A stretch of 64,000 nucleotides of DNA, taken from an uncultured virus (IMG/VR IMGVR_UViG_3300020557_000008) (Duplodnaviria > Heunggongvirae > Uroviricota > Caudoviricetes). Positions 1,208 through 20,217 of the stretch are shown here, piece after piece; within the stretch, counting starts at the first letter, position 1, and every line of letters starts with the position of its first letter. The position numbers were made by a program, and so were the translations under genes. The notes under the pieces are model-generated. The model was not told the origin of the DNA, made no database searches, and saw only the letters and a program-made list of their open reading frames with translations. The stretch covers positions 1 through 64,000 of the IMG/VR virus record IMGVR_UViG_3300020557_000008, one strand, 5' to 3'.

Positions 1208-1230
1208 CCATTTGTCACACAATTGTCATA
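1208..1230. promoter_or_regulatory. OmpR/PhoB-family-like direct-repeat box (TGTCAC-N5-TGTCAT)
   Basis: 11-bp period; identical 23-mer at 4934-4956. Confidence 0.55.
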
Positions 1231-1295
1231 CTTCACTGAGAGTGGTCGGTAGTCACGGAGAGTGGTCGCCGTCCTTGGGGTAGGAAACTTTGCGA

Positions 1296-1313
1296 TTGTG
1301 CGCACTTTCACAA
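1296..1313. promoter_or_regulatory. Rex-type operator-like palindrome TTGTGCGCACTTTCACAA
   Basis: Fits TTGTGAA-N4-TTCACAA; related copies at 4986, 7351, 17696, 20170. Confidence 0.6.
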
Positions 1314-1339
1314 GCCCGTGTCCGCGCCCGTGCCCGGGG

Positions 1340-1353
1340 CGAACACCTGTTCG
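1340..1353. promoter_or_regulatory. LexA (SOS) box CGAAC-N4-GTTCG
   Basis: Exact core match; further copies at 3682-3695, 9978-9991, 9993-10006. Confidence 0.75.
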
Positions 1354-1374
1354 CTTCTTGCCTCCGGCCTGCCC

Positions 1375-1431
1375 AAAATATGGTGTTCCTTGATTATTGG
1401 ATTTATTTTCGTGCGGAGCGTTCCTTCGGGG
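1375..1431 (+). repeat. Dispersed ~57-bp element, copy 1
   Basis: AAAATATGGTGTTCC-N9-GGATTTATT-N~11-GCGTTCCTTCGGGG. Confidence 0.9.
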
Positions 1432-1476
1432 CAGTTGGGCTCCCGCTCGCGGCGGGTAGCCCCTCTGCCTTTTGGT

Positions 1477-1620
1477 TTAGTCCCACTCGCCCAGAGTTCG
1501 GAGGATGTCCTCAGTCCACCTTCTGAAGTCGGGATTTAGGTCAAGGTCTAGCGACCAATCGTAAATCTCTACTCGCTCGTGGTCCTCTCGGGTGATTTTG
1601 TTTTGTTCTCTCGGTGTCAT
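1477..1620 (-). CDS. Small hypothetical protein (47 aa, MTPREQNK...)
   Basis: Read manually; AAGGAGAAAACA RBS; own promoter. Confidence 0.7.
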   Translation of the reverse strand: MTPREQNKITREDHERVEIYDWSLDLDLNPDFRRWTEDILRTLGEWD

Positions 1621-1684
1621 TGTTTTCTCCTTCTGTTTTTAGTATAACATGGCTCGGGCTGTTTGTCAACCCGAGCCATGTTTT

Positions 1685-1924
1685 TTATTTTTCCGTGATT
1701 CCTGCCAGACGGCAACCCTTGCGGATTTTGCCCATTCCTTGCTTGTCGCTCATTGAGCCCCAACCGTTGCTTACTTGCGTAAGTGTTCCGTTGGCGATTT
1801 CTGCCATGAGCGTTGAATAGTGCCAGATTTGGCGGACGCCTTCAACCTCAACGGCTCTCCATGAAGAAGCCTTGACGGTCTTGCCGTTTCGCAATGGCAC
1901 TGTTGCTAGTTCCTGTATTTTCAT
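1685..1924 (-). CDS. Hypothetical protein
   Basis: ORF with AAGGAG RBS and consensus promoter 1964-1992. Confidence 0.75.
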   Translation of the reverse strand: MKIQELATVPLRNGKTVKASSWRAVEVEGVRQIWHYSTLMAEIANGTLTQVSNGWGSMSDKQGMGKIRKGCRLAGITEK

Positions 1925-2194
1925 TGTGTTGTTCTCCTTGTTTTGGTTTTGCCTTACACCTTCAGTATAGGGTACTGTTAGACATTTGTCAACCTTATCC
2001 GACAGAAACTTATTTTTCTTTTTGAGGTTGCTTTTTGTCTGCCGTTGTGTTATACTATTATTAGTGGGGGGAGGAGACGACTCGCGCCCCTCTCCGGTAA
2101 GACGCAGCCCGTGCGCCCCTCTTCGCCCTAGGTCGCCCGTGGTGGCCTCTGGCCGCCCCTTCGGGGGAGGGCTCTCACCCTCCCCCTTTCGGGA

Positions 2195-2437
2195 CTACTT
2201 CGCCTCTTGCTTGTTCAGCAGGGTTCCGCCTGCGTACCCGAGGTCGTAGGCGAGGTTGCTGCAACGCCACGAAACGCCGCTCAGTGCGCTCTCGATGAGG
2301 CTGCTCTTCTCTTCGTCGTGGGTCGTGTCGGCTGCATCTACTTCGGCTGCCTCTACTTGGTCAATCAGTCGGCGCAGAATCAACTTGACTTCATGCGCCC
2401 TCTGCTGTGCTCTCTCACTCGCGGTCATTGTATCCAT
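2195..2437 (-). CDS. Hypothetical protein
   Basis: Start moved to the ATG after AGGAGAAGAG. Confidence 0.7.
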   Translation of the reverse strand: MDTMTASERAQQRAHEVKLILRRLIDQVEAAEVDAADTTHDEEKSSLIESALSGVSWRCSNLAYDLGYAGGTLLNKQEAK

Positions 2438-2569
2438 TGCTCTTCTCCTTTGTGTTGGGTGAGGCGGTTGCCCCACTACTTCTAGTGTATCACAACTACT
2501 TCTCTTCGTCAACCTGAAACGCAAATTATTTTCATTCTTTGCCCCTGCGCACTTTTCGCCCTGGGTGGG

Positions 2570-2704
2570 TCAGTCCCACTCTCGGCGGTCGGGTGCCGGC
2601 TTGCGCTTGTGGTGGATAGTTACCGCACGGGTGCGCAGTCCGTCTGCGAACGCCTGCTTATCCGCGGGGTTCCAGCCCCTCCGCTTGCTCTTTTGGTTTT
2701 TCAT
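2570..2704 (-). CDS. Small basic protein (44 aa, MKNQKSKRRGWN...)
   Basis: Read manually; GGAGGTG RBS; promoter 2723-2751. Confidence 0.65.
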   Translation of the reverse strand: MKNQKSKRRGWNPADKQAFADGLRTRAVTIHHKRKPAPDRREWD

Positions 2705-2828
2705 CTTCACCTCCATAAGACCAGTGTATCACACTTTTAGTGGTTTCGCAACTCGTTCCGCAAGATTTTGCCCCTGCGCGAACTTCGGGCTGAGAGGGCA
2801 CTTCTCGTCCCCCTCAGCCCTTGCGCTC

Positions 2829-3026
2829 TTAGGCGTTGGCGGTTTCTGTCTTTGCCTTCACGGTTGGGTTTCCCAACTTGCGAGCGACATCTACGATGTC
2901 ACCAGTCAGGTTCAGGAACACCGTTCCGTTCTCTCCGTCTCGGAGTTCAATGCTCAACATTCCGTTGGTCATTTCTGCCGTGACATCGTCCGCGGTGAGG
3001 TGGACGAATAGGTGTGTGCTTATCAT
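2829..3026 (-). CDS. Hypothetical protein
   Basis: AAGGAAGGAAA RBS; promoter 3073-3101. Confidence 0.7.
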   Translation of the reverse strand: MISTHLFVHLTADDVTAEMTNGMLSIELRDGENGTVFLNLTGDIVDVARKLGNPTVKAKTETANA

Positions 3027-3202
3027 TTCTGTTTCCTTCCTTGTTGTGTAAGGCGGTTGCCCTACTACTATTAGTGTATCACACTTGCGAGAGTTTCGCA
3101 ACTCTTTGCGCCACCTTTTTTAGATTCTGCCCCAGCGGCCTTCGCTGGGCGAGTTTGGGGTGGCAAGGCAAGGAGGTAGAACCCTGCCACCCTCACTCGT
3201 TC

Positions 3203-3490
3203 TTATCGGGCTACGGCGAGCGAAGCCTTGTTCAGGGCATCGCTACTCTCTCGCCATGCGTCGCTATCGGCTGTCTCTCCGTAGAACGCTTGACGATAGA
3301 TACGCTTGCCTTTGTGGTACAACTCAACCATAACGGCGTTTGCCTTTATGCTGTCGTCGTATGTCACTTCGGCTTCGTAGGTGACTTTGGTAATCTCGTC
3401 GTAAGCCCACCCCGTAGGGAATAACTCACTGGATACCTCAATCCACTCGCCCGTTCGTTTTGCGCCTCTCGGCAGTCTGTAATAACTCAC
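3203..3490 (-). CDS. Hypothetical protein
   Basis: ORF, RBS, promoter 3539-3567. Confidence 0.7.
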   Translation of the reverse strand: MSYYRLPRGAKRTGEWIEVSSELFPTGWAYDEITKVTYEAEVTYDDSIKANAVMVELYHKGKRIYRQAFYGETADSDAWRESSDALNKASLAVAR

Positions 3491-3796
3491 TTCATTACCT
3501 CTCTCTCTTGTAGGTACTTCGGTTTCCCTACTAACTACACTATACCAGATTGTTAGACACTTGACAACCTTATCGGGCAGATTCCCGAAGAATCTTTTTG
3601 CCGGCTCAGGTTGACTTTTCGCTCATTGTGTGATACAATGATAATAGACGGGGGAGAGGAGAGCCCGCCGCGGCCTCCGCCCGAACGTATGTTCGCCCGC
3701 GCGCCCCTCTTCGCCCGGGGGTCGTTCTCTTCCCTCAATCTACTTTTATTTTACAGTGGGGGTGTAACACGGTTTCCCGCGCTACACCCCCATTTT

Positions 3797-4108
3797 TTAT
3801 TTTGCGAAACTCGCTACTGCTACCGCTATGTCCCAAGCATCAAACTCATCTGCTGTACCGTAGTTTTCAGTAGCGTTTTTACCGAAGTACGGCAGATTAT
3901 CTTCTAGGTGTTCACGCAACGCTTCAAGCGTTGAGGGACTATCGATAATCTCTTTCAGAACCTCACCTACTTGGCGGAGTCTGTTTCCGTTGTTGGTGTT
4001 CCGAAACTGATAAGCCTCGAACCAATAGGTTCGGCTTTCTTCTGCTTGTTTTAGTGCTTTGCGTAACTCATCAACATACTCTTGGGTAATCGGCTGTTCG
4101 GTAATCAT
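3797..4108 (-). CDS. Hypothetical protein
   Basis: AAGGAG RBS, promoter. Confidence 0.7.
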   Translation of the reverse strand: MITEQPITQEYVDELRKALKQAEESRTYWFEAYQFRNTNNGNRLRQVGEVLKEIIDSPSTLEALREHLEDNLPYFGKNATENYGTADEFDAWDIAVAVASFAK

Positions 4109-4309
4109 TGTTTTTTCTCCTTGTTGTTTTGGTTTTGCCTTACACTCTAAGTATAGCATCTGTTAGACACTTTGTCTACTCAGAATAGACATTGTGAAAT
4201 GTTTCTTTTGCCCGCCGCGGCCTCCGCCCGCGGGCAATTTTCTCCCACACCCTATTTTAGCGTGGGGGTGTTACACAGTTATTTTTTACTGTGTAACACC
4301 CCTTTGCTA

Positions 4310-4588
4310 CTAGGCGTTTGCCGTTGCGAGTTTGTCGTAACGGTGTACGGGCTTTATGTCTTCATTCACTGCTCGCCCGATGCTCTTAGCATTGAGTAGG
4401 TCAGTGAGAGTGCCAAGCATGACATCGTAGTAGACATACTCGCTACCGTTTGTGTACTCAATTACCAATTCACCGTAGGCGAGTTCGTAATTGTCCGACT
4501 CGCCATGTTGGGCGAGGTCAATCTCGCTCACCGTATAAGTGAGTTTCCTCACTGCCGTTGAGTTGAGTTGGGTTACTTCTATTTTCAT
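4310..4588 (-). CDS. KTSC-domain protein
   Basis: Pattern NSTAV...LVIEYTNGSEYVYYDV...LLNAKSIGRAVNEDIK typical of KTSC. Confidence 0.75.
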   Translation of the reverse strand: MKIEVTQLNSTAVRKLTYTVSEIDLAQHGESDNYELAYGELVIEYTNGSEYVYYDVMLGTLTDLLNAKSIGRAVNEDIKPVHRYDKLATANA

Positions 4589-4676
4589 TTTGTTTCTCCT
4601 TTGTTGTTTTGTTATTGCCTTACACTTCTACTATACCGTTGGTGGGGCAGATTTCCAACCTGCCCCACCAGATTTT

Positions 4677-4859
4677 TTAGCGTCCGAATTCTTCCTGCCA
4701 GAGTTCTTCTGCTTTGTCTAGGATTCTGTCGGCGTAGCGAGTGCTCATGTAGTCGTCGTCAATCCACGGAATGAATCCGTTTCCTGCGAGGTGCTCTATG
4801 GCTCTCTCTACGAATCGCTCTTGCTCTTCTTCGCCTAGTTCACTGAATTCGGTAATCAT
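4677..4859 (-). CDS. Small acidic hypothetical protein
   Basis: ORF with AGGAG RBS. Confidence 0.7.
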   Translation of the reverse strand: MITEFSELGEEEQERFVERAIEHLAGNGFIPWIDDDYMSTRYADRILDKAEELWQEEFGR

Positions 4860-4959
4860 TGGTTTCTCCTTTGTGTTGTTTTGCCTTACACTCTAATTGT
4901 ACAGCATGGGTGTACCATAATTGCGCATTTACGCCATTTGTCACACAATTGTCATAATC

Positions 4960-4980
4960 GGCTGTTAGGCTCACCTAACA
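4960..4980. promoter_or_regulatory. DtxR/IdeR-type iron box-like palindrome
   Basis: GGCTGTTAGGCTCACCTAA, 14/19 to TTAGGTTAGGCTAACCTAA. Confidence 0.6.
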
Positions 4981-5035
4981 AGTGATAGTGCGAATTTTCA
5001 CAAGCCTCCGACCGAAGGTCGGCTCCCGGTAGCCC

Positions 5036-5093
5036 AAAATATGGTGTTTCCTGATAATCGGATTTATTTAGTGCTGTGGCGTTTCCCTTGGGG
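5036..5093 (+). repeat. Dispersed ~57-bp element, copy 2
   Basis: AAAATATGGTGTTTC...GGATTTATT...GCGTTTCCCTTGGGG. Confidence 0.9.
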
Positions 5094-5148
5094 CTGAGCG
5101 AAGGGGGTGAGCGCCCGGCCTGGTCGCCCACCCCACATCATTTTGCTC

Positions 5149-5301
5149 TTAGAGCCACTCAGAGACGTCGCCGTCGGCGATTTCTGAGTAGTCCAATCCA
5201 TGAGCGTCGGCTACTGCTTGCCAGAAGTCTTCTTCTGTAAGCGGTGCTTGACCCTCTTGAATGTCTTCTGGGAGATGCTCCCACCACGTTGTTTTATTCA
5301 T
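5149..5301 (-). CDS. Small acidic protein (50 aa, MNKTTWWEHL...)
   Basis: Read manually; GGAAAGGA RBS; promoter. Confidence 0.7.
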   Translation of the reverse strand: MNKTTWWEHLPEDIQEGQAPLTEEDFWQAVADAHGLDYSEIADGDVSEWL

Positions 5302-5325
5302 TGTGTTTCCTTTCCTGTTGGGTAA

Positions 5326-5526
5326 TTACAGTGTATCACACTCTAGGAGTTTTAGCAACTCTTTCTGGGTCATTTCCTGAATCTGTGCCGCGTCTAGGTC
5401 TGCGGGTTTGATGACCTCAATGATTTGGCCCCTGCCTTGCGCGACTTCGCGGGCTGAGTAGAGGCTGAGGTACGGGCCGAGGTAGATATCTCCCGCGGCT
5501 GTGTTGAGTTTGATGATGTAGTTCAT
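5326..5526 (-). CDS. Hypothetical protein
   Basis: AAGGAG RBS before MNYII. Confidence 0.65.
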   Translation of the reverse strand: MNYIIKLNTAAGDIYLGPYLSLYSAREVAQGRGQIIEVIKPADLDAAQIQEMTQKELLKLLECDTL

Positions 5527-5589
5527 GTTTCTCCTTGGCCTCCGGGCGGCGGCTGGTGGGGCACTTCTCGTCCCCACCAGCCTGACCCG

Positions 5590-6054
5590 TTAGGCGTTGA
5601 TTAGTTCTTTCTGAGCCTTGACCCACTGCTCGTAGTTCCAGGCTTCGGTTGTCACGATTGCCTTGATTACCTTGAGGGGAATCTCGGCTTGGTTATTGCC
5701 GTACTTCACGGCGTTGTTTGCCCACTCAGTGATGCTGTAGGTGCTGTGGTTGGTGCTGAGTCCGACCATCTCATCTACCATCGCTGGCGTGATGTAGAGG
5801 TTGTGGCGTTCGCCATCTTCTCTCCACTCGTACATCATCGGGCTTTGGCTCATCGCCTCAACAGCCTTAGACCGACCGTAGTAGTCAGCCGCGTTGGCTT
5901 CGGTGATGCGCCCGTATCCGACTACGCCACCCCAGAAGATGAACGTCTGAATGTCGCCGCGTACGTTGTCATGACCGTACTCGTCTTTGACCCAGACTCC
6001 CTCGGGGTTCTTGGCGTAAGCCTTTGTATTTCCGATATCCCATGTCAATGGCAT
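5590..6054 (-). CDS. Hypothetical protein
   Basis: GGAAAGG RBS, leader hairpin, promoter. Confidence 0.75.
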   Translation of the reverse strand: MPLTWDIGNTKAYAKNPEGVWVKDEYGHDNVRGDIQTFIFWGGVVGYGRITEANAADYYGRSKAVEAMSQSPMMYEWREDGERHNLYITPAMVDEMVGLSTNHSTYSITEWANNAVKYGNNQAEIPLKVIKAIVTTEAWNYEQWVKAQKELINA

Positions 6055-6170
6055 TGTGTTTACCTTTCCTTTGTTTGTGTGGGGCGGTTGCCCCACTACT
6101 AATATTGTATCACCTATTCTGCTGTCTCACAACCTCGGCGGCAAGGTTTTGCCTCCGGGCGGTGCTCGCC

Positions 6171-6407
6171 CTACCTTTCGGTAGGGACGAGACCAGCGGG
6201 CTTCAGTGAGTTATTCAGCACGAGGCCGTAGAAGTGGCCTGTGACTGCATCCTTCACGAACGAGTGTCCCATTGTGCCGTTTGGCGGTGCGCCAAGGCCA
6301 CCTGAGCACTTCACCACGAGGGTTCCACGCTTTGGCTGGTGTGGGCGGGCATCAAAGATGTCCATCCCGACGGGTTCGTATCGGTATTGCCTGATTTTCT
6401 TGGTCAT
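6171..6407 (-). CDS. Hypothetical protein
   Basis: GGAGG RBS, promoter. Confidence 0.7.
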   Translation of the reverse strand: MTKKIRQYRYEPVGMDIFDARPHQPKRGTLVVKCSGGLGAPPNGTMGHSFVKDAVTGHFYGLVLNNSLKPAGLVPTER

Positions 6408-6479
6408 TGTGTTTTCCTCCATGATGTTAGTATAACAGATGTTTTGCGGTATTGCAACCTTCTTTTATTCCTTTATTGC

Positions 6480-7276: not shown

Positions 7277-7405
7277 ACATACATTATGCCGTACTGTTAG
7301 ACAGATTACAACCTTATTCGTATTACAGAAGTATTACATTTGGCTTGTGCTTGTTCGCACTTTCACAAGCCCGGGGCCGGTGAAATCGATTTTTGCCCCT
7401 GCCCC

Positions 7406-7463: not shown

Positions 7464-7506
7464 CTGGGCTGGTGGGGGATTGCCCCACCAGCCTCGCTGA
7501 CCATTC

Positions 7507-9938: not shown

Positions 9939-10036
9939 CCGGGTTCTGCCCCTGCGCGCGCCGGTGCGCTCGCGGCCCGAACACCTGTTCGCCGAACGCG
10001 TGTTCGGGTGGGGCTTTCGCCCCACCCTTTACGCGG

Positions 10037-11080
10037 TCAGACTCCGAGGAGTTGGAGAACCTTTCGGTCACTCTGCTCGGTCTTGCCCATGAGCGCGTTC
10101 ATCATGTTGCGTTCTGCTCGGTTGTCCGAGTTTCCAACGACATGGTGGTTGTAAGTGTTGAACGCTTGAAGAACTCCAAGTGCTGAACCCTTCCACGGTG
10201 CGACGCGCACATCGTAGTTGTAAAGACTGACAATTTCTTCGCGCTTGTTCTCTGCGCGAGTCACTGCCGCTTTATTCTTATCGTCTGGCATGAGCGTCGG
10301 AATCGGCGCGAGTGCTTCAAGCACTTTCTGCCATTCTGCGTCGCTCACTTTGTGCTCGGACAGTTTCGTAATCTCTGCCATGATGTTGTCGGTCATCTTG
10401 TGAACGATGCCGAGCGCATCACGCGCTGACTGAATCCGCATTGCCGAGTTCTTGCTGTGGCGAGTCTTGAATTGACTCGTGTTCTCTTTCATCGCCATTG
10501 CGTGAGTGTTGTCGCACACTACGAAAGTGGAGACACTCTTGTAGGTGGTTGCCAACATTCCGTTGTGCGATGTCGTGGCGAGCAAGTGAGGACGGACGCT
10601 GAATCCTTCCAACACTTCTACCGACTCTGGCATTTCCAAAGAGACGAACGCGACTGCGCCGTTCTTCAAGATGCCTGCCGAGCCAAAGTTGATGTCATCA
10701 TCAACGATGTTCGCCAAGTTCTGAACGAGCCATTCTGGATACTGGTGCGAGCAGTAATCTTTGCCGAAGATTTCCATCAGGTCGTTAGTGTCTGAGCGCA
10801 AGATTGCCTGACGCTCTACCTCTACGAACTTGATTGGGTTTCCGTTATCGTCCACGCCTGTGGCATCGTCAAGCGTTGCTGGAACGCGAACGAACACTGG
10901 CGCGCTGACTGCCGACCACGCGAAGAGCCGACGCAAGATGTCATCGGTCGGAATTGCGCCTTCGTAGTGGTTGGGCTCGGTGCCTTGTAGGTCGGCGCGG
11001 TAGTGCCACGCGTTGCCACGCTCGGCGGTGAACCCGACGAGGATGTTGGAGTTGAGCCACTCCATGGTTTCTTTGGACAT
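10037..11080 (-). CDS. DUF932 (phage/plasmid-like TIGR03299) protein
   Basis: AWH N-terminus, AILRSDT, SAG.LKNG, TSHNG, VVCDNT, RHSKN motifs. Confidence 0.8.
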   Translation of the reverse strand: MSKETMEWLNSNILVGFTAERGNAWHYRADLQGTEPNHYEGAIPTDDILRRLFAWSAVSAPVFVRVPATLDDATGVDDNGNPIKFVEVERQAILRSDTNDLMEIFGKDYCSHQYPEWLVQNLANIVDDDINFGSAGILKNGAVAFVSLEMPESVEVLEGFSVRPHLLATTSHNGMLATTYKSVSTFVVCDNTHAMAMKENTSQFKTRHSKNSAMRIQSARDALGIVHKMTDNIMAEITKLSEHKVSDAEWQKVLEALAPIPTLMPDDKNKAAVTRAENKREEIVSLYNYDVRVAPWKGSALGVLQAFNTYNHHVVGNSDNRAERNMMNALMGKTEQSDRKVLQLLGV

Positions 11081-11247: not shown

Positions 11248-11268
11248 TTATCCACAGCCTGTGGATAA
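11248..11268. promoter_or_regulatory. Inverted pair of perfect DnaA boxes
   Basis: TTATCCACA-GCC-TGTGGATAA. Confidence 0.75.
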
Positions 11269-12714: not shown

Positions 12715-12932
12715 TAGTGCTTCCCGATGTCTAGAAAACCTGTTTCGTTGCCTTCTGGGTCAGACATTACGAGAGCGTCGGTCCCATCAGTGAACTCCAA
12801 AATGCATGTTGGTGTTTTTGAATAAAGCCAACCTGTTTCTTTGTTCTCTTCGTCCGTCAGTTCACGAACGTTCTTGATGGTCTTGCCGACAAGCGACTCA
12901 GCGTAATGAGTTTTGTTTATTACTGTGCTCAT
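12714..12932 (-). CDS. Hypothetical protein (...MSDPEGNETGFL)
   Basis: ATGA-coupled ORF. Confidence 0.7.
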   Translation of the reverse strand: MSTVINKTHYAESLVGKTIKNVRELTDEENKETGWLYSKTPTCILEFTDGTDALVMSDPEGNETGFLDIGKH

Positions 12933-13162
12933 ACCTTGATGCCTGTCACGAGTTCTTCTGGACGCGTATCAAGCGCGTAGCAGATACGGAAAAACGTATC
13001 CAGCGACGGAGAGAAGTGTCCATTCTCGATTCTGTTGATGGTCTTGCGGTCAATGCCTGCGCTCTTAGCCAAATCGCCCTGAGAGAGACCGATGGTCTCG
13101 CGCAGGCTCTTTACTCGGCTTGCAACTTCAAGCAGTGCCTTTTTGTTCATTGCGTTGTTCAT
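12929..13162 (-). CDS. XRE-family helix-turn-helix regulator
   Basis: LRETIGLSQGDLAKSAGIDRKTINRIENGHFSPSL. Confidence 0.9.
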   Translation of the reverse strand: MNNAMNKKALLEVASRVKSLRETIGLSQGDLAKSAGIDRKTINRIENGHFSPSLDTFFRICYALDTRPEELVTGIKV

Positions 13163-13300
13163 TGTTTGTCTTTCTTTCTGTGGGTGTTGTGCCACACTTA
13201 CATTGTACCATGACCGAGTCAGGCTTGCAACCTTCCCGAAAAAATATGTTCGCGGATATTGTTGTTGTCTGACCCGGCCAAGGATTTTGCCTCTGGCCCG

Positions 13301-13555: not shown

Positions 13556-13660
13556 TGCTTTCTTCTTTCTATGTGTGTTGGTATTACATCTCAATTATAC
13601 ATTGTGTCTAACGCATCTACAACCTCTGTGCGCGAGTTCACTCGCGCTTTGGGGTTAAGT

Positions 13661-13905
13661 GACGGTTATATGACGGTTAAGGGACGGTTAGATAGAAATG
13701 GTACAGGCTCAAACCCTTACTGGGTAAGGGTTTCCGGGCTTTTGTACCATATTTGCGGGTGACAATCTGTCACCTTGGGGGTGACAACCTGTCACCCCGG
13801 GGGTGACAACCTGTCACCCCCTAGTGACAATCTGTCACTACTTGTGGCGGCCGTCACATACTACATGTAGTGGGGTGACAACCTGTCACCCCCTACATCT
13901 AGAGA
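13661..13905. repeat. Iteron-like array, candidate replication origin
   Basis: GACGGTTA x3 at 11-bp period (13661, 13672, 13683); palindrome AAACCCTTAC-TGG-GTAAGGGTTT (13711-13733); GTGACAA(T/C)CTGTCAC x5 (13759, 13781, 13803, 13824, 13875). Confidence 0.75.
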
Positions 13906-14588: not shown

Positions 14589-14645
14589 TTCTTATTCCCT
14601 TTCATTGAGTTGGTTATTGCTTACACTTACATTGTAGCACAATAA

Positions 14646-14876: not shown

Positions 14877-14961
14877 TGTTTGTTCCTTTCGTTTATTTTG
14901 ATGTCAATCGCTATTACTGCCGCCACTAAAGCAAACAACATGGCCACCACGATGATGTCAA

Positions 14962-15234: not shown

Positions 15235-15482
15235 AGCATCCCCAATTCCTTGAGGTCGTTGTTTACTTGCTCTTGAACCCAGACGCGGTTGGCTTCAGAC
15301 GCCGCGTAATAGGCGACTGCCTGCTTGGTTTGGGTCTGCTTGAGTTGCTCGCCGTAGCCAGCCTTCTCAAGCAGTCCCCAAACTTCGTCTAAGCACTCGC
15401 CGTCATTCGCCTCGTCTCCGTGGCGCGTAAGGGCTGTGATGATGTCGTTGATAAGGGTTGGGTAATCGGTTGTGTTGGTCAT
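15231..15482 (-). CDS. Hypothetical protein, leaderless
   Basis: TACACT just upstream of ATG. Confidence 0.7.
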   Translation of the reverse strand: MTNTTDYPTLINDIITALTRHGDEANDGECLDEVWGLLEKAGYGEQLKQTQTKQAVAYYAASEANRVWVQEQVNNDLKELGML

Positions 15483-15519
15483 ACTTAGAGTGTATCACAC
15501 CATTTGCCGTTTGACAACC

Positions 15520-15717
15520 TTATTCGGCATCAAGTGGCTGAATATTCCACTTGGTACACCAGTGGTCGTAGCAACCATCGCACAGATAAGTGTTGTCCTG
15601 GTAAATACGCTTAGTGTTGTTCTCGCCGGAGCCAACCGGTGCCAAGTTCCAGTCGTCAATCATGACAACATCGCACTCGGAACAGATTCGCTGTTTTGTT
15701 TTTGTCATCTCAATCAC
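15520..15717 (-). CDS. Zn-finger-like hypothetical protein
   Basis: CSEC...CDGC; GTGA overlap. Confidence 0.65.
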   Translation of the reverse strand: MIEMTKTKQRICSECDVVMIDDWNLAPVGSGENNTKRIYQDNTYLCDGCYDHWCTKWNIQPLDAE

Positions 15718-16184
15718 CACGAACTCTGGTAGGTAAACTCCCACTCATCAGGCATCTTGAGGATGTCTGTAAGCATGGAGATACTTCTCTTTAGTTCCTC
15801 AAAGTAATACTCGTCGTAGTCCTGAGAGCCGAAGAAACAGCCAGCAGAAGTTGGCAAGAGTTCATCCGCCTTCTTCGGGTTCTTCTTGACTTCTTTGCAC
15901 AAGCCGAGAAGTTCCTGAAGTTTTTCACGGGAGACATAAGTCGTGCGACAGTCGTCCTCTCCGTTTTGGCAGTTTTCTACAAACCATTGGTGGATTTGAT
16001 TTGCCTTACGCCAGTAGCCGACTGAGATTTCCAGATAGGCAGATGGCATAAAGGTATGTTTCATGTAACTGTCAGGAATATTGGCAAACTCCTTGAGTTC
16101 GTCAAACGCCTTCTTGCTTTCTTCACCACGCCAGTTCGCACTTGAGTAGAACTTCTTGGCATTGAGGTACATATCCAGTCCCAT
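15714..16184 (-). CDS. Conserved phage protein (MGLDMYL...YWRKANQIH family)
   Basis: Recognisable motif family of unknown function. Confidence 0.8.
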   Translation of the reverse strand: MGLDMYLNAKKFYSSANWRGEESKKAFDELKEFANIPDSYMKHTFMPSAYLEISVGYWRKANQIHQWFVENCQNGEDDCRTTYVSREKLQELLGLCKEVKKNPKKADELLPTSAGCFFGSQDYDEYYFEELKRSISMLTDILKMPDEWEFTYQSSW

Positions 16185-16426
16185 TAGAGAACTCCTGCTT
16201 CAATCCACTTGGCAAGGTCTGTTGCTGGCATCGGCGTCAGTTTTTCAACTTCGTTGATTTCAACAACATCCCAAGCCTTGTCCCAATCAAGAACTTCAAC
16301 CCAAAGGATTTTGTTTCTGTCAAAGGGCTCGTTGCTGTATTTCTCCATAGCCTCATCCGCATCGTTGGCTTCAACGATGTATTGGAGGTTTATGTCAATT
16401 GACTGCTGAATAATAAATTGTTTCAT
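16184..16426 (-). CDS. Hypothetical protein
   Basis: GAAAGG RBS, promoter. Confidence 0.7.
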   Translation of the reverse strand: MKQFIIQQSIDINLQYIVEANDADEAMEKYSNEPFDRNKILWVEVLDWDKAWDVVEINEVEKLTPMPATDLAKWIEAGVL

Positions 16427-16488
16427 TGTGTTTGCCTTTCTATTTGGTTGGTACTTACATTGTAGCACAATCTAGGTCGTTTTCCAAC

Positions 16489-16698
16489 CTAGATATCGTT
16501 GCCGTCCTCATCTTGGAAGATGAGTTCGTGGCGGGACGGGGCTGAGCGCATATCTTCGTATGCCAACCTAGCCACCATCTCCATCACATCGTCGTCGGAT
16601 ACTTCCAACTCGGGGTCGTTGTTGTTTTCCCGAATTGACTCTTTGACTGACTCCACATCGTAGGTGAAGGTACGGATGACGTTAATTGTCTCCATCAC
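16489..16698 (-). CDS. Acidic hypothetical protein
   Basis: Coupled ORF. Confidence 0.7.
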   Translation of the reverse strand: MMETINVIRTFTYDVESVKESIRENNNDPELEVSDDDVMEMVARLAYEDMRSAPSRHELIFQDEDGNDI

Positions 16699-17024
16699 GC
16701 ATACTCCTCTTCCTCTTCCTCGCGGCGCGCCTCATCTTCGGCGCACTGAGGAATGAGACTGGTGAAGCCTTCGTTGGGGTCAGCCTCGTTGGTTTCCACT
16801 GCTGAGATGAACTTGAGTGGGCATGAATCTTCGTACCACTTCTCAAGCGTTGCCAGCATTACATCTGGATACGCGGTCTGAGTGTGTTCGTAGTTTTCTC
16901 GGAACCACTGAGCCTGAGTCTCGTCAAGAGCAAGATAAATCTTGTGGCAACCGTCAAACGCGATACATTTCGCGTATTCCAGTTGTTCCTTGACTTCGTG
17001 CCAATAATCTTCCATTACAGCCAT
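16695..17024 (-). CDS. Hypothetical protein (IAFDGCHKIYL)
   Basis: ORF, promoter. Confidence 0.75.
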   Translation of the reverse strand: MAVMEDYWHEVKEQLEYAKCIAFDGCHKIYLALDETQAQWFRENYEHTQTAYPDVMLATLEKWYEDSCPLKFISAVETNEADPNEGFTSLIPQCAEDEARREEEEEEYA

Positions 17025-17099
17025 TGTGTTTTCTTCTTTCTGTTGAGTTGGTTATTACTTACAATTACAGTATAGGGGTCTGTATCACAGTTTGCAACC

Positions 17100-17420
17100 T
17101 TATTGGTCAAATATTCCCTCATCGTGCCAACGATAGGACTCGTTTTGCTGAATTACTTCTTCTGAAGGTACGCCAATTATCTGAAGTGTGTGTTGGTCAA
17201 TGATACGGAAACACCGTTCACATAGGTAGTGGGTTCCGTCCCACCCTTGCTCGTCGGGCTCGCACCTCGCGCCAATTTCGCTACAAGGGCTGAATCCGTC
17301 AAAGTGTGGCTCGTTCTTACACTTACAAATCCACCAGTCTTCACTGTCTTCAATGATGTAGTCAGGAATACTTTCTGGTGGGGCAAGGAGCATGTCCGTC
17401 CAGTCTGGTTTATTTTCCAT
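17100..17420 (-). CDS. Cys-rich hypothetical protein
   Basis: ORF overlapping the upstream gene end. Confidence 0.65.
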   Translation of the reverse strand: MENKPDWTDMLLAPPESIPDYIIEDSEDWWICKCKNEPHFDGFSPCSEIGARCEPDEQGWDGTHYLCERCFRIIDQHTLQIIGVPSEEVIQQNESYRWHDEGIFDQ

Positions 17421-17658
17421 TCTTAGCCGCCCAGTACGCCTGTACCTCGGTTTGTTCATCGTCTGTGCCGTCCGATAGGACAATCTCAAACTGGTGAAGC
17501 CCGTTGATGACGCGGAAGGTCTCGGCGTTCGCCACACTGTCCCAAGTGAGAGCATTACGAAGCGAATTGGTAGTTCCGCCTCGGTCTCCCAAGAGTTTTG
17601 CGCAGAAGCGTCGGTAGCCTTTGTCGTTGGTTTTCTGTAATAGGTATTGTGTTGTCAT
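17410..17658 (-). CDS. Hypothetical protein, leaderless
   Basis: TACAAT 6 nt before ATG. Confidence 0.7.
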   Translation of the reverse strand: MTTQYLLQKTNDKGYRRFCAKLLGDRGGTTNSLRNALTWDSVANAETFRVINGLHQFEIVLSDGTDDEQTEVQAYWAAKNGK

Positions 17659-17773
17659 GACTCTATTGTAGCACAAACAATCCGGTTTCGCAACCTTGTT
17701 CACAATTTCACAAATACTTTCAGGTATTTTATTTGAGACACTTTTCAGTTTTTGTCTTATTTGCCCCTAGCCA

Positions 17774-17831
17774 AAAATATGGTGTTCCATGGAAAATGGT
17801 TTTATTTTTAGGGACAGGCCGTTCCCTTGGG
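17774..17831 (+). repeat. Dispersed ~57-bp element, copy 7
   Basis: AAAATATGGTGTTCC...GGTTTTATT...GCCGTTCCCTTGGG. Confidence 0.9.
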
Positions 17832-17834
17832 CCC

Positions 17835-18071
17835 CTACGGGCGGTCTGCGTCCTTCACCGATGCAAGCACGCCCATGTCGTTGAATTTATTCCGAAGTTC
17901 TCGGACGGCATCTACCGACATGCAGACGTGCCCGGTGACAGTCCAACCCATGCCGCGCTTTGCTTCATGCAGCATGAGTTCTCCTGTTTCATCTAACTCG
18001 CGAAGAACTGCAATTACTTTCAGTCCCTCACTCCGAGTGTTGACAGCAGCGCTGACAGTGATTGGCTTCAT
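17835..18071 (-). CDS. Hypothetical protein (start uncertain)
   Basis: ORF in operon. Confidence 0.55.
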   Translation of the reverse strand: MKPITVSAAVNTRSEGLKVIAVLRELDETGELMLHEAKRGMGWTVTGHVCMSVDAVRELRNKFNDMGVLASVKDADRP

Positions 18072-18081
18072 GTCCGGCAAT

Positions 18082-18324
18082 CTAGCCCACCCATCTTCCA
18101 AAGACGGTGTAGCCGTCTTCTTCGCGCCGCACAATCCATTCCGTGCCCGGATATCGCTTCTTATACTGCTGGGCTTTTGAGTGACCCGTGCGTGCGATGT
18201 TTCCGGTGCAGTACACCGCCCACGCGCCTGGAGTCTCTTTGAGTTTGTCTACGAACTGCTTCACCTGATACGGGCTGCCGTTGCGCGGTCCCGGCGGCTG
18301 CCGGAACTCCGTTTTCCTTGTCAT
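18082..18324 (-). CDS. Hypothetical protein
   Basis: ORF in operon. Confidence 0.7.
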   Translation of the reverse strand: MTRKTEFRQPPGPRNGSPYQVKQFVDKLKETPGAWAVYCTGNIARTGHSKAQQYKKRYPGTEWIVRREEDGYTVFGRWVG

Positions 18325-18347
18325 GTTATGTATCTTTCTTTGTTTTA

Positions 18348-18809
18348 TTAAAAGGGAAGTCTGAACCACATGTCCTTGCCGCGCGCACAGTCATGCACGC
18401 TGCTTAGCCCAATCCGCTTGTACATCGCCCGCGTATTCGCGTTTGAGTCAATGGCGTGGTATTTACCTGTGTCGTTACCAAACTTTTTAAATACTCGATT
18501 GACCATCTGATACTCCTTGATTGCCGGAGCATCTTGTCCATCGATGTCTGTGTCGTTGAAGAGGGCGAGGTCTGGCTGCCATCCGGTACGGTCATAGATG
18601 CGCTTCAACGTGGGAATGGCCCACTTGATGTTGCGTGCCGTAATCAGGATGGTGAACTCCGGTTCAAGGAGTTCTGTCATCCACTTGCGATAGTCCTCGT
18701 GATTGCTCACGAAGTCATCAAAGGCGTGGTTACGCATCTCGCTGAAGTTGGACGACAAAGCCACGTTCAAGTCCATCAGTACGATGCGCTCGGTTGACTT
18801 CTTAGCCAT
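18348..18809 (-). CDS. HAD-superfamily-like (PNK-phosphatase-like) protein
   Basis: IVLMDLN motif I variant, ILITAR motif II, K, AIDSN motif IV variant. Confidence 0.55.
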   Translation of the reverse strand: MAKKSTERIVLMDLNVALSSNFSEMRNHAFDDFVSNHEDYRKWMTELLEPEFTILITARNIKWAIPTLKRIYDRTGWQPDLALFNDTDIDGQDAPAIKEYQMVNRVFKKFGNDTGKYHAIDSNANTRAMYKRIGLSSVHDCARGKDMWFRLPF

Positions 18810-19302
18810 TCTTCTCTCGTTCTCTATCCGCTTTCGGGTCTCTGACTTCCCACGAACCACGCTGTATTTTGCGGAAGTAAGGGGATGTTTTGAGATAGTT
18901 TAGAACCGTCGGATAGGAAAATCCCGAAAGGCCGACAATCTCTTCAGTGGTTACTTCCTTGTAAAGATTGTTCTTGCACCACTCTTCAAGGGCTTTCCAC
19001 TTGTCTGCGCGTCGCTCCGGCTTCTTTTCCTGAACGGCCTCTTTTAGCCGTTCTTTTCCAAGATATTCCGAAACCAGATACTCAATGACTGGTGTGGAGA
19101 TTGAGTAGTCGCGCATAAAGCGAACCACGTTGCCTGCGGACGGCGTCTGCTGCCAGACCTGCATGACATACAGCCCGCGGATGAGTTCGCCCATACGGGC
19201 CGACTCGTCGCGCGGAACTTTGTATATCGTGCCGTGCTTGGCTGCAGCGTCGCGCCACAGTTCTGCGTTTTTCTTATCAACTATTTCGTCTGTAATTTTC
19301 AC
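18802..19302 (-). CDS. Hypothetical protein with C-terminal winged-HTH-like segment
   Basis: VTTEEIVGLSGFSYPTVLNYL...FRKIQRGSWEV. Confidence 0.65.
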   Translation of the reverse strand: MKITDEIVDKKNAELWRDAAAKHGTIYKVPRDESARMGELIRGLYVMQVWQQTPSAGNVVRFMRDYSISTPVIEYLVSEYLGKERLKEAVQEKKPERRADKWKALEEWCKNNLYKEVTTEEIVGLSGFSYPTVLNYLKTSPYFRKIQRGSWEVRDPKADREREKNG

Positions 19303-19553
19303 CAGCCGTCTCCTGCTGCATCGTAGATTCCGTTAAAAAATGCCATATTCCAAAACGCGCTATTGCCACGTGAGAGCCCTGCGCACATCTCGCAAATCCA
19401 TGCGCCGCCTTCTTGCTCTATGAGCATTGGGCGAGGCATGCAGCACGCATCACACTCAGCATCCGGCTCATGCGCCACGGTCACGGTGTACGTGACGATG
19501 GGCGTGGTCGGTGCACTCTTGTGACGACTGGGCCTTTTCTTACGACGGGCCAT
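19299..19553 (-). CDS. Zn-finger-like hypothetical protein
   Basis: CDAC...CEMC. Confidence 0.65.
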   Translation of the reverse strand: MARRKKRPSRHKSAPTTPIVTYTVTVAHEPDAECDACCMPRPMLIEQEGGAWICEMCAGLSRGNSAFWNMAFFNGIYDAAGDGW

Positions 19554-19771
19554 AAGCGCTTGAATCCTCTCAGTAGTTGAAATGGGGTTGGGAATTGATG
19601 GAATTTGAGGAATTTAAATACTCCTCCAGTGAATTGCATACTCGGGAAAAAGATAGCCCACAGCATGGACACGGCAACCAACGTTGGCTGCGCATCCGTC
19701 ACTGGCAGTATCCCAAAGGACAGCACCAAGATGACGAACCACTGGAACCACTTGTTCTTGATTAATTGCAT
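19481..19771 (-). CDS. Membrane protein
   Basis: Two hydrophobic segments. Confidence 0.6.
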   Translation of the reverse strand: MQLIKNKWFQWFVILVLSFGILPVTDAQPTLVAVSMLWAIFFPSMQFTGGVFKFLKFHQFPTPFQLLRGFKRLWPVVRKGPVVTRVHRPRPSSRTP

Positions 19772-19775
19772 TCGG

Positions 19776-19976
19776 TTACTCCTCTGGGATTAGGTTGGTA
19801 TTGAGTGTAAGCCAGTGGCGAAGGTATGACGACATGTCTGCATACATTGCGCCTTCCAGCATCGGGTCAAAGTCGCCGCCGAATGATTCGGGGAAATGCT
19901 TGACGATGGTCGTCCAGAAAGACTCAAGGCCCTTGTCAACGGCCTCTTCTACACGTGCTTCTAGTTGGATATTCAT
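19776..19976 (-). CDS. Hypothetical protein
   Basis: GAAGGAGGTG RBS. Confidence 0.7.
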   Translation of the reverse strand: MNIQLEARVEEAVDKGLESFWTTIVKHFPESFGGDFDPMLEGAMYADMSSYLRHWLTLNTNLIPEE

Positions 19977-20217
19977 TTGGTTCACCTCCTTCATTGGGTT
20001 GGTTATCATGCTCTATCACAGTATATCATGCTCTAGCACAATCAACAACCCGGAACAACCAGATTCTTGATTGCGTAGTCACCCTATCCATGATAGAGCG
20101 TGATAGAGCATACGACAACCTCGTTCCGGAAATATTTTTGACTCTCGGTAGTTTTATTTTGAGTGACGCTCGTGAAAGTGCGCACAAGCACAATCACGTA
20201 TTTCTGCCTCTGTCCCA

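Follow-up and report, generated by a model that had tools for sequence, protein, structure and literature searches.

LexA-type, DnaA and Rex-like sites among phage-family repeats in the intergenic spacers of an uncultured freshwater siphovirus

The small-gene arm and its spacers

The window analysed here, a stretch of 64,000 nucleotides, is the small-gene arm of an uncultured freshwater siphovirus. The phage probably infects an actinobacterium, since it carries a WhiB-family gene and leaderless genes, and its helicase has its best matches in Arthrobacter phages. The DNA-binding candidates that it encodes are an HTH_3 protein, a weak RHH match, WhiB, HTH_36 and two ParB-like proteins, alongside many small ORFs with no family match. 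The genes and the recurrent element that frame the spacers are as follows.

1373..1408, minus strand: core of the first copy of a 57-bp element, bipartite and orientation-locked
5034, 7404, 9878, 11326, 13299, 17772, 20216 and 21137: other copies of the 57-bp element
10037..11080, minus strand: DUF932 gene, with a DnaA-box pair upstream and LexA boxes downstream
12929..13195, minus strand: leaderless HTH_3 (Cro/CI-type) gene, a candidate phage-encoded binder of some modules
23575..24129, minus strand: WhiB-family gene, a clue to an actinobacterial host

A typical large spacer, read along the minus strand, contains the hairpin terminator of the upstream gene, the 57-bp element, an operator zone of about 25-120 bp made up of interchangeable dyads and direct repeats, and finally one or two sigma-A-type promoters with an extended -10. 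The 57-bp element lies in a single orientation in 45 of 45 copies and its conservation is bipartite, a AATAAATCC block being followed by about 9 variable bases and then by GGAACACCAT-TTTT. Its shape is promoter-like, with TATTTT as a possible -10.

The map used for counting motifs divides into spacers (5,455 bp) and coding DNA (14,985 bp). For LexA, DnaA, IdeR, NrdR, BldD and cre, generic consensus strings stood in for curated matrices, and the LexA, Rex and DnaA motifs of the host are assumed rather than host-derived.

LexA-type, DnaA and Rex-like sites

A preliminary description of these spacers had assigned their motifs to eight classes of host regulator. A host identity is plausible for three of these, LexA, DnaA and Rex, and the other five labels fall away. 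The sites of the three classes, all unstranded, are listed here.

1340..1353: perfect LexA-type box, 26 bp downstream (in gene direction) of a 57-bp element core
3682..3695: LexA-type box; its spacer has no 57-bp element
9978..10006: two LexA-type boxes in tandem, immediately after the DUF932 gene's terminator hairpin
11248..11268: inverted DnaA-box pair ahead of the DUF932 gene's tandem promoters; a 57-bp element core lies 64 bp upstream
1296..1313: Rex-like module M1, 2 mismatches to the 18-bp Rex operator consensus
4986..5003: M1, 3 mismatches
7351..7368: M1, 3 mismatches
17696..17713: M1, 2 mismatches, directly adjoining the -35 of the 17693-17665 promoter
20170..20187: M1, 3 mismatches, in the opposite orientation to the other copies

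The four LexA boxes originally reported are all perfect copies of CGAAC-N4-GTTCG (1340-1353, 3682-3695, 9978-9991 and 9993-10006). At up to one mismatch the 14-mer occurs four times in the spacers and never in coding DNA, and shuffled spacers yield a mean of 0.10 with none of 200 reaching four, although 5 of 100 decoys made by permuting the columns of the LexA motif also reach four matches at this threshold. Among the 1,024 possible perfect 5-mer/N4 dyads, CGAAC-N4-GTTCG ranks first in the spacers (four copies; the runner-up has two, and 1,005 have none), in spacers that are dyad-rich overall (27 versus 2.93 ± 1.48 in shuffles). The looser core GAAC-N4-GTTC is found six times in the whole window against 1.16 expected, a count reached in 0 of 100 shuffles, and its ORF-internal matches, in the window and in three relatives, are without the flanking C and G. 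The box at 3682-3695 lies about 45 bp downstream of a promoter-like site on the plus, antisense strand (3611-3639).

The inverted DnaA pair was likewise borne out, as two perfect 9-mers where 0.04 are expected in the spacers (0 of 200 shuffles reach two). Window-wide, DnaA boxes at up to one mismatch are scattered and not enriched (12 versus 13.75 expected). By eye, the pair is placed 17 bp upstream of a conserved promoter-like -35, and no long AT-rich unwinding stretch was seen beside it.

The DUF932 gene served as the anchor for finding relatives, five of which (82-100% identity in DUF932) were used for footprints. In all five, the DnaA pair and the first LexA box of 9978-10006 are unchanged, invariant islands amid diverging flanks, while central bases vary; each relative carries one to four LexA-type boxes in its spacers. 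The conservation does not extend to distant relatives with DUF932 identities of 51% and 33%, whose examined stretches contain neither LexA-type nor DnaA boxes. Perfect sequence, enrichment and conservation together make a host LexA-type identity plausible, and the same three properties do so for host DnaA. Moreover, the LexA box and the DnaA pair are syntenic and flank one gene, which suggests gene-specific control.

Five Rex-like boxes are present as had been claimed, each with two or three mismatches. At up to three mismatches the spacers hold six matches against 0.28 expected and coding DNA none, whereas the window-wide count is at chance (7 versus 5.59; 29 of 100 shuffles reach it). Three of the five sites (the D14 copies at 1296, 7351 and 20170) have CG in place of the consensus TT in one half-site, a hint of a different, perhaps phage-encoded, specificity. 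In two relatives, L011 and L012, M1 is a 24-bp palindrome, and this exact form occurs in 18 genome records. Three of these are actinobacterial, and in all three it lies upstream of the cytochrome bd subunit I gene cydA (two) or a WhiB-like gene (one). In Streptomyces, cydA and wblE are reported as direct Rex targets, with binding seen at sites with up to three mismatches; at wblE, a complete operator accompanied by a half-site is described downstream of the transcription start, where it works as a roadblock (PMC5355995). Because the relatives' 24-bp form precedes published Rex targets in actinobacteria, the Rex label gains outside support, and host Rex is a plausible identity for M1, though less exact than those for LexA and DnaA.

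Other modules and the arrangement of sites

Five further labels had been applied to motifs that are better described as repeats of the phage family. Those that form modules are listed here together with two repeat arrays.

1208..1230, minus strand: M4, two TGACAA repeats with an 11-bp period, just upstream of a promoter -35; formerly a LacI-/OmpR-like site
4934..4956, minus strand: second copy of M4, 23/23 identical to 1208-1230
1238..1268, minus strand: M2, two GAGAGTGGTCG repeats 20 bp apart; includes the former BldD-like dyad
4963..4980, unstranded: M3, an 18-bp palindrome, TGTTAGG-N4-CCTAACA; formerly an IdeR-like box
13653..13690, minus strand: iteron-like TAACCGTC, 3.5 copies with an 11-bp period, kept in five relatives
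13757..13892, unstranded: five GTGACA-N3-TGTCAC dyads in an array that precedes a small ribbon-helix-helix-like gene

The palindrome read as an IdeR/DtxR box is real, and in relatives its arms are kept while its centre varies, but it has 5/19 mismatches to the IdeR consensus and a dyad axis about 2.5 bp from the IdeR axis (manual alignment); of 401 actinobacterial genomes, two contain its pattern and one contains a control pattern. Direct repeats with 11-bp spacing also exist, as TTGTCA at 1212 and 1223 and in the array at 13653-13690, without bearing out their OmpR label. The repeats behind the BldD- and LacI-like sites are real and conserved, those of M2 recurring in relatives as GACCACTC-type repeats; the spacers contain no BldD match at up to one mismatch, and LacI/cre-type matches are weak (11 versus 3.95 expected). 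The NrdR-like pair could not be recovered, there being no phased pair in the spacers and four matches at up to four mismatches, of which two are the core of the 57-bp element. The IdeR, NrdR, BldD, LacI and OmpR labels are over-readings of phage-family repeats. M2, M3, M4 and the 13.7-kb array are specific to the phage family and are probably read by phage proteins or by other host proteins, and the array at 13757-13892 probably consists of operators of the phage's own regulator. The breadth for which the spacers had seemed without precedent is therefore that of at most three host-type sites and several further modules, not of eight regulators.

The reported stacking is confirmed, with four module types in 1208-1353 and three in 4934-5003, and the association with the 57-bp element also holds: ten of the 11 mapped sites are in element-bearing spacers. 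In eight of these ten cases the site follows the element core by 26-66 bp and precedes sigma-A-type promoters, a fixed placement that argues for action in cis. Behind the 57-bp elements of relatives, M1-M4 and the LexA and DnaA boxes are reshuffled in differing combinations, as in L012 at 19536, where M1, M3, a DnaA box and an M2-type dyad are stacked.

Possible roles and comparison with known systems

These conserved spacer motifs look like local gene switches more than a sponge for host proteins. We consider it possible, with a probability of roughly 0.45, that modular operator zones gate or tune transcription by host state; both the binders and the gating are inferred from sequence, enrichment, conservation and placement. 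The spacers of the small-gene arm would then be composite cis-regulatory regions in which three kinds of module carry consensus operators of host global regulators, those of DnaA and of Gram-positive/actinobacterial LexA exactly and that of Rex less so. A protein occupying the operator zone might locally stop transcription that starts at the 57-bp element or passes weak terminators, or might instead tune the promoter just downstream. Accessory genes would be expressed according to host state, DNA damage releasing LexA, a raised NADH/NAD+ ratio releasing Rex, and replication status setting DnaA occupancy. The host-state roadblock raised in the preliminary description suits the anatomy better than a decoy does. 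Several observations speak against gating. LexA and Rex usually repress from sites that overlap the promoter, whereas here tens to about 140 bp separate the LexA boxes and most Rex-like sites from the next sigma-A -35 downstream; and the LexA boxes at 9978-10006 are upstream of their 57-bp element, not behind it. The CG shared by three Rex-like sites, the lack of LexA-type and DnaA boxes in the 51% and 33% relatives and the palindromic repeats that actinophages are known to carry of their own also count against it.

All modules, the LexA-, DnaA- and Rex-like ones included, might instead be operators for phage proteins that time early shut-off, their likeness to host sites being coincidence or mimicry. 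We regard this as rather unlikely. The phage's candidate binders and family-less small ORFs, the clearly phage-specific array at 13757-13892, the want of host counterparts for M2, M3 and M4, the CG shared by three of the five Rex-like sites and the absence of LexA-type and DnaA boxes from the examined stretches of the 51% and 33% relatives are all consistent with it, and the 17-bp repeats reported for Cluster O offer a precedent (PMC4351075). Such an account must nevertheless accommodate LexA-type and DnaA boxes that each match exactly a host consensus which is widely conserved and independent of the other, where chance predicts 0.10 and 0.04 per spacer set, and a 24-bp M1 form equal to operators at known actinobacterial Rex target genes; furthermore, a scan of 107 ORFs in the contig, which is about 57% complete, yielded no LexA-like or S24 peptidase protein. 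Titration in trans, in which replicated phage DNA would draw off LexA, Rex, DnaA and others and so de-repress their regulons, had been proposed for these sites and appears quite improbable. Regulator titration by extra sites is established in bacteria (PMC8599769), several sites here are of consensus strength, and many do not overlap a sigma-A promoter. Yet four LexA-type boxes, two DnaA boxes and five imperfect Rex-like sites per genome are few, a pure decoy would not need its sites to stay in register between the 57-bp element and the promoters, the synteny of LexA box and DnaA pair around one gene suggests gene-specific control, and a literature search on phage decoys of host regulators found no case. 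Titration has no positive evidence and fits the placement poorly.

It is improbable that some of the sites serve DNA transactions rather than transcription, with the DnaA pair as an origin or, in the manner of the T5 injection stop signal, a site of entry control and the iterons and dyads at 13.65-13.9 kb as an origin or centromere for RHH or ParB-like proteins. ParB-like genes, the conserved 11-bp-period repeats and the T5 stop region, described as holding eight DnaA boxes among repeats and palindromes (10.1101/866236), lend this idea some support, but here there are two DnaA boxes and no cluster, looser boxes are scattered at chance level, no long AT-rich stretch is seen beside the pair, the position 17 bp from a -35 is typical of a regulator, and LexA- and Rex-like sites are left unexplained. 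Finally, dozens of motifs searched at loose thresholds might produce look-alikes in any 5 kb of repeat-rich spacer. This holds for the five rejected labels, and the chance-level window-wide counts for Rex and DnaA and the permuted LexA decoys point the same way; as an account of the whole it is very improbable, for it leaves unexplained the four perfect LexA-type boxes, the perfect DnaA pair and the invariance of both in five relatives, and dyad rank and footprints already refute it for the LexA-type and DnaA sites.

Cluster A mycobacteriophages carry stoperators, intergenic sites at which bound repressor halts transcription elongation. Each is an asymmetric 13-bp site that the phage's own repressor binds, and there are dozens of copies, oriented with transcription. 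On our reading the operators in short intergenic gaps described here may work similarly, although they are symmetric, few and of several kinds. Cluster O mycobacteriophages resemble this phage in having a palindrome scattered mainly through intergenic DNA near predicted sigma-A promoters, its arms invariant and its centre variable; the reported motif, TGTTCGGNNNCCGAACA, is palindromic, occurs in 34 copies and has similar arms (PMC4351075). It is a single motif type present more than 30 times, and its arms are everted compared with those of a LexA box, whereas here several motif types with few copies each form stacked modules. M1 shares the 18-bp consensus geometry of Streptomyces Rex operators, and the 24-bp palindrome of L011 and L012 matches the 'operator plus half-site' described for wblE (PMC5355995), but the window's five copies depart from the consensus by two or three mismatches, three of them through CG for TT in one half-site.

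GIL01 also bears Gram-positive-type SOS boxes, through which host LexA is reported to control phage promoters and couple transcription to DNA damage (PMC4551915, PMC6182141). Those boxes are described as lying in P1, the lysogenic promoter of this temperate phage, and as acting with the phage protein gp7; the four boxes here are dispersed in small-gene-arm spacers, off the sigma-A promoters, and no repressor/integrase module or LexA partner was seen in 76.6 kb of phage sequence. T5, another large siphovirus, likewise has non-coding DNA rich in repeats and palindromes, with conserved consensus DnaA boxes, in its first-expressed arm, although as described this is one large untranslated region with eight ordered boxes and a proposed DNA-entry stop (10.1101/866236). 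The present phage has a single inverted pair upstream of one gene's promoters, and an extra single DnaA box in one relative's module stack. Co-option of host global regulators is reported for lytic phages with CtrA sites (PMC9437464) and for cyanophages with pho boxes or NtcA sites in promoters (PMC10976474, PMC3037559), which makes infection responsive to host physiology. Those examples involve a single regulator apiece, whereas here up to three host-type sites and further modules occur together in single spacers.

Spacers of the small-gene arm and their 57-bp element

Bases 1-20.3 kb carry about 47 small minus-strand genes by our own calls, separated by 5,455 bp of spacer. Sigma-70-like promoter matches number 35 in this arm, against 13.6 +/- 3.5 in shuffled sequence, and 29 of the 35 are on the minus strand. 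A 57-bp element recurs in eight large spacers of the arm, with a ninth copy at 21137.

Cores of the 57-bp element
1373-1408
5034-5069
7404-7439
9878-9913
11326-11361
13299-13334
17772-17807
20216-20251
21137-21172

The element-bearing spacers are built, in the direction of the genes, from a stop codon, a GC-rich hairpin, the 57-bp element, extra sequence and one or two promoters. The orientation of the element follows gene direction in all 45 copies found in the window and four relatives, and across these 45 copies it is bipartite, with an AAATAAAtCC block and about nine variable bases followed by GGAACACCATtTTTT. Its shape is promoter-like, and the element is a candidate promoter that might be recognised by a modified polymerase or by some non-standard sigma factor, perhaps in connection with the WhiB protein of the phage.

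Ten of the 11 mapped operator-like sites lie inside element-bearing spacers, which account for 2,656 of the 5,455 spacer bases. Eight of these ten are positioned 26-66 bp downstream of an element core, and the tandem LexA-type boxes at 9978-10006 lie 83-98 bp upstream of one. Dyads overall are also concentrated in spacers: 27 were counted, where shuffles average 2.93 +/- 1.48, and coding DNA of almost three times the length has 18. A reading of the dyads as RNA hairpins was rejected, as the arms are invariant, show no compensatory changes, and in some copies of the Rex-like module keep one half-site only.

Several other features were observed in the arm. Plus-strand (antisense) promoter-like sites occur at 3611-3639, with a similar module in the spacer 1925-2194 and in relatives. 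These sites (3611-3730, plus strand; 1925-2194) face GC-rich, hairpin-rich DNA that ends in terminator-like hairpins, and the plus-strand stretches behind them may be transcribed as short antisense RNAs, one of which would include the LexA-type box at 3682. The 678-bp spacer 9359-10036 has promoter-like minus-strand sites at 9819-9791, about 9712-9684 and 9436-9408, contains about 250 bp without a convincing open reading frame, and could harbour a very short gene or a non-coding RNA. Stable minus-strand hairpins in terminator position, at about 3155-3192 and 6508-6546, present ACCTCCTT, the complement of the Shine-Dalgarno sequence, in their loops.

The phage and its probable host

The 76,634-bp IMG/VR viral contig, of which the window covers bases 1-64000, is rated about 57% complete, and a megablast search of bases 1-20000 against phage records found no closely similar deposited phage. 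Almost every gene is on the minus strand. The tail genes are of siphovirus type (a tape measure at 39182-44098 and a Dit-like protein), a capsid fragment is encoded at the far end of the window, and other coding content includes a VanY endolysin, a helicase, two ParB-like proteins and several 2OG-Fe(II) oxygenases. No lysogeny genes have been seen in the phage so far, and the whole window contains no match to an Rfam family at the gathering threshold and, by tRNA scan, no tRNA gene.

The host is probably actinobacterial, because the phage encodes a WhiB protein, its helicase finds its best matches in Arthrobacter phages, and several of its genes are leaderless, with the start codon 7-8 bases past the -10 box and no ribosome-binding site. 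Leaderless genes are typical of Actinobacteria. A genome scan with the WhiB protein revealed no close cellular relative (62 pattern matches, none confirmed).

Genes bearing on the host, and the oxygenase set
23575-24129: WhiB gene (PF02467, 49.4 bits against a cut-off of 23.6)
6899-7276: leaderless gene
12929-13195: leaderless gene
15231-15482: leaderless gene
17410-17658: leaderless gene
21875-22486, plus strand: 2OG-Fe(II) oxygenase/hydroxylase-like set
32500-33855: same set
54668-57316: same set
59140-60171: same set
60892-61581: same set
12260-12826 of L017, a stretch of the same contig running past the window: same set

Seven 2OG-Fe(II) oxygenase paralogues and one Asp/Arg hydroxylase-like gene are present in the phage, and two glycosyltransferases (52456-54660), an AdoMet decarboxylase-like gene and two ParB-like proteins are encoded near the oxygenase genes. 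This load of modification enzymes appears unusual, and hypermodification of DNA or protein is possible. L017 also encodes, at its positions 1737-7175 (contig 65237-70675, minus strand), a 1,812-aa protein with an Mtd_N (major tropism determinant N-terminal) domain that may be a receptor-binding protein of the retroelement-diversified kind. The phage seems to be persistent in lakes. At least 95% of sampled words from 1000-10900 are contained in 19 public runs with freshwater or lake-water labels dating from 2016 to 2024, four of which are possibly the source of the contig; among the public runs listed as containing the phage, none is an RNA run.

Operator-like sites and their conservation

The preliminary description had presented the spacers as a collection of operators for unrelated host regulators. 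The sites fall into LexA-type boxes, DnaA boxes and four short recurring modules.

Recurring spacer modules
M1: Rex-like TTGTGAAAGT family
M2: GACCACTC-type repeats
M3: TGTTAGG-N4-CCTAACA with variable centre
M4: TGTAAYAC or TGACAA direct repeats of 11-12-bp period, just upstream of a -35

The LexA SOS box of the Gram-positive/actinobacterial type is a 14-bp palindrome, CGAAC-N4-GTTCG; as an operator it is placed over or shortly after the promoter under its control, and host LexA bound to it is freed through RecA-stimulated cleavage. All four LexA boxes previously claimed are perfect matches (1340, 3682, 9978 and 9993), and all are in spacers, with none in 14,985 bp of coding sequence, a shuffle mean of 0.10, and none of 200 shuffles reaching four. 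In a prior-free count this pattern ranks first among all 1,024 5-mer arms at N4 spacing, and over gaps of 0-10 just six arm/gap classes, this one included, attain four copies, the remaining five being hairpins and the array at 13.7 kb; as a caveat, four hits at up to one mismatch are also reached by 5 of 100 permuted LexA decoys. None of the boxes overlaps a promoter of sigma-A type. Three of them have centres about 120-140 bp upstream of the first -35 found beyond them, one box is 26 bp behind a core of the 57-bp element, itself a putative promoter, and one follows a promoter-like site of the plus strand at a distance of about 45 bp. Where looser 12-mer matches fall within open reading frames of the window and three relatives, the C and G on either side are missing. 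Among 107 open reading frames scanned against Pfam on this contig of about 57% completeness, none was found to encode a LexA homologue as in GIL01.

The consensus DnaA box is the 9-mer TTATCCACA. The inverted pair described earlier was recovered as two perfect 9-mers at 11248-11268, where 0.04 would be expected; at up to one mismatch, DnaA boxes are scattered over the window without excess (12 against 13.75 expected). The pair ends, in our reading, 17 bp upstream of a conserved promoter-like -35, and its position, judged from sequence, is activator-like. A DnaA-dependent origin or a region resembling T5 iss would comprise a cluster of several ordered boxes (8 in T5) and an AT-rich unwinding region; only the pair is present here, and the remaining boxes at up to one mismatch are at chance level.

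The Rex consensus reported for Streptomyces avermitilis is the 18-bp TTGTGAA-N4-TTCACAA; sites with up to three mismatches are bound, more weakly at three, and cydA1B1CD and the WhiB-family gene wblE are described as direct targets (PMC5355995). Five Rex-like boxes had been claimed for the phage, and five sites were indeed found, each of them imperfect with 2-3 mismatches. They form a single repeat family, M1, and three of the five carry CG where the consensus has TT. Rex-like hits number 6 in spacers against 0.28 expected, with none in coding sequence; window-wide there is no excess (7 against 5.59 expected). In L011 and L012, two loci of relatives, M1 is a perfect 24-bp palindrome, and an exact scan with a free 4-bp centre located this palindrome in 18 genome records. 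Three of the records are actinobacterial as titled (Streptacidiphilus, Kitasatospora and a Mycobacteriales MAG), and in all three the palindrome lies directly upstream of an open reading frame matching cytochrome bd subunit I (two records; E values 7.5e-24 and 1.9e-20) or WhiB (one record; 4.2e-14). Six of the 18 are Marinimicrobia or Neomarinimicrobiota as titled. The nine records with a TATA centre (L018-L022, L025, L032, L033, L035) are titled as Marinimicrobia/Neomarinimicrobiota (five), Cloacimonadota (one) and unclassified uncultured MAGs (three), and in those groups the palindrome is presumably the operator of another, uncharacterised regulator. The half-sites of the 24-bp form are 10 bp apart, against 4 in the Rex operator. 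This spacing is compatible with Rex because the wblE site, which lies downstream of the start site and at which Rex may block polymerase, is described as a full operator with an adjoining half-site (PMC5355995). Given that operator description and the location of the relatives' form upstream of cydA and whiB, the M1 family is credibly Rex-type, with the reservation that the window's own copies are imperfect and that three share the CG. In a host that encodes Rex, NADH would relieve the binding.

Other host labels fared less well. An IdeR/DtxR iron box is a 19-bp palindrome about a central S; the box at 4963-4980, previously assigned to this class, is a perfect 18-bp palindrome whose best match to it has 5/19 mismatches, with the TGTTAGG-N4-CCTAACA axis about 2.5 bp off. 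Within 401 genomes drawn from the class to which one actinobacterial hit belongs, M3 was rejected as a host operator: 2 contain the dyad, 1 contains the reversed control pattern, and no sign of a host regulon was seen. NrdR sites are two 16-bp palindromes in phase, about three helical turns apart, normally upstream of nrd genes. The supposed NrdR-like pair dissolved into four hits at up to four mismatches, two of which are the core of the 57-bp element, with no phased pair and no nrd gene near the hits. The BldD box is the palindrome TNACNCWGNGTNA, and the BldD label found no spacer hit at up to one mismatch; the LacI label was unsupported by a consensus scan of the spacers. Patterns for IdeR, NrdR, BldD, the symmetric lac operator, Fur, CIRCE, HAIR, DasR dre, GlnR and E. 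coli-type LexA gave either 0-1 spacer hits or chance-level counts. For the OmpR-like 11-bp direct repeats, the OmpR/PhoB-type geometry (direct repeats of about 11-bp period beside a -35) was found at 1208-1230, 4934-4956 and 13653-13690, the first two being identical at 23/23 positions, and a sequence match to a named regulator was not; the PhoP direct-repeat pattern gave 1 hit against 4.73 expected. The stacking described earlier was confirmed, with four distinct modules in 1208-1353 and three in 4934-5003.

The preliminary description had named conservation across related phages as a check. The protein of the DUF932 gene (10037-11080, minus strand) retrieved eight related IMG/VR loci, five of which, at 82-100% identity, share a common architecture. 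The DnaA pair and the first LexA-type box are kept in all five. In the spacer upstream of DUF932, the pair is retained with a few flanking bases amid surroundings that have diverged or been deleted, and the last base of the second box is changed in two relatives. In the downstream spacer, the first LexA-type box adjoins a terminator hairpin in all five; the central four bases of the box vary, and the hairpin arms vary with compensating changes. The full LexA-type 14-mer occurs one to four times in the spacers of each relative. M1-M4, LexA-type and DnaA boxes recur in varied combinations behind the relatives' 57-bp elements, and one spacer of L012 contains M1, M3, a DnaA box and an M2-type dyad consecutively. 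In three more distant loci (51%, 51% and 33% identity), the stretches examined are devoid of LexA-type boxes, DnaA boxes and the 57-bp element; the M3 palindrome is present in one of them.

Possible action of the sites and comparison with known systems

We favour, at a probability of roughly 0.45, a reading in which LexA, Rex, DnaA and other proteins act locally on the spacers. The operator zone would lie between the promoter-like 57-bp element and the sigma-A-type promoter or promoters of the next gene, and the bound proteins would either gate transcription arriving from upstream or tune the downstream promoter, such that single accessory genes are tied to host state. This reading is weakened because the LexA and Rex sites are mostly off sigma-A promoters and because one LexA pair lies upstream of its 57-bp element. 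That every site is instead read by phage proteins is unlikely, although a more serious prospect than the rivals that follow. The spacer 13595-13907 holds five GTGACA-N3-TGTCAC dyads (TRF: period 22, 3.8 copies), 3.5 TAACCGTC iterons of 11-bp period and a long nested inverted repeat; five relatives also keep the iterons. The dyads and iterons are upstream of a small gene (13385-13594) whose ribbon-helix-helix match is weak (E 7.9e-4, short of the Pfam cut-off), and a leaderless HTH_3 gene is nearby. The simplest reading of these arrays is that phage proteins bind them, and the spacer is a candidate autoregulatory operator, centromere or origin. It is improbable that part of the sites serve DNA transactions such as origin function, entry control or partition.

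Slightly more improbable still is a decoy, or sponge, in which replicating phage DNA would titrate LexA, DnaA and Rex at once through genome copy number; SOS, replication-control and respiratory regulons would then be switched on to the benefit of the phage without any phage-encoded protein. A decoy array would have no cis target, titrating numbers and a trans effect on a regulon. This fits poorly with the sites seen here, which hold a set position after the 57-bp element and before promoters and are few per genome (4 LexA-type, 2 DnaA and 5 Rex-like). A limited literature search found no paper on a phage titrating host regulators by DNA sites, which leaves room for one elsewhere. Pure over-reading of look-alike motifs is refuted for the LexA-type and DnaA sites and is, for the collection as a whole, the least probable account.

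This abundant lake phage family seems to use up to three host-type operators alongside modules of its own. If the predicted binding is true, accessory genes of an environmental phage would be wired simultaneously to host DNA damage, redox state and replication status, the modular stacks would provide a natural example of phage cis-regulation evolving by shuffling, and the sites would offer testable clues to the identity of the uncultured host and to the timing of small-gene use.

Single host regulators are known to be borrowed by phages. CtrA, pho-box (PhoB) and NtcA sites reportedly occur in other lytic phages, the latter two in cyanophages. The promoters of GIL01 are described as being under host LexA through SOS boxes (PMC4551915), and a 17-bp dyad without an assigned function is reported to occur 34 times in Cluster O mycobacteriophages (PMC4351075). 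In T5 and 24 relatives, eight ordered DnaA boxes are reported to be kept in a repeat-rich untranslated early region (10.1101/866236), whereas this phage has a single inverted pair. What is new in this phage, in which no lysogeny genes have been seen so far, is the combination of several host-type and unassigned modules, shuffled into stacks that follow a repeated element at a set distance.
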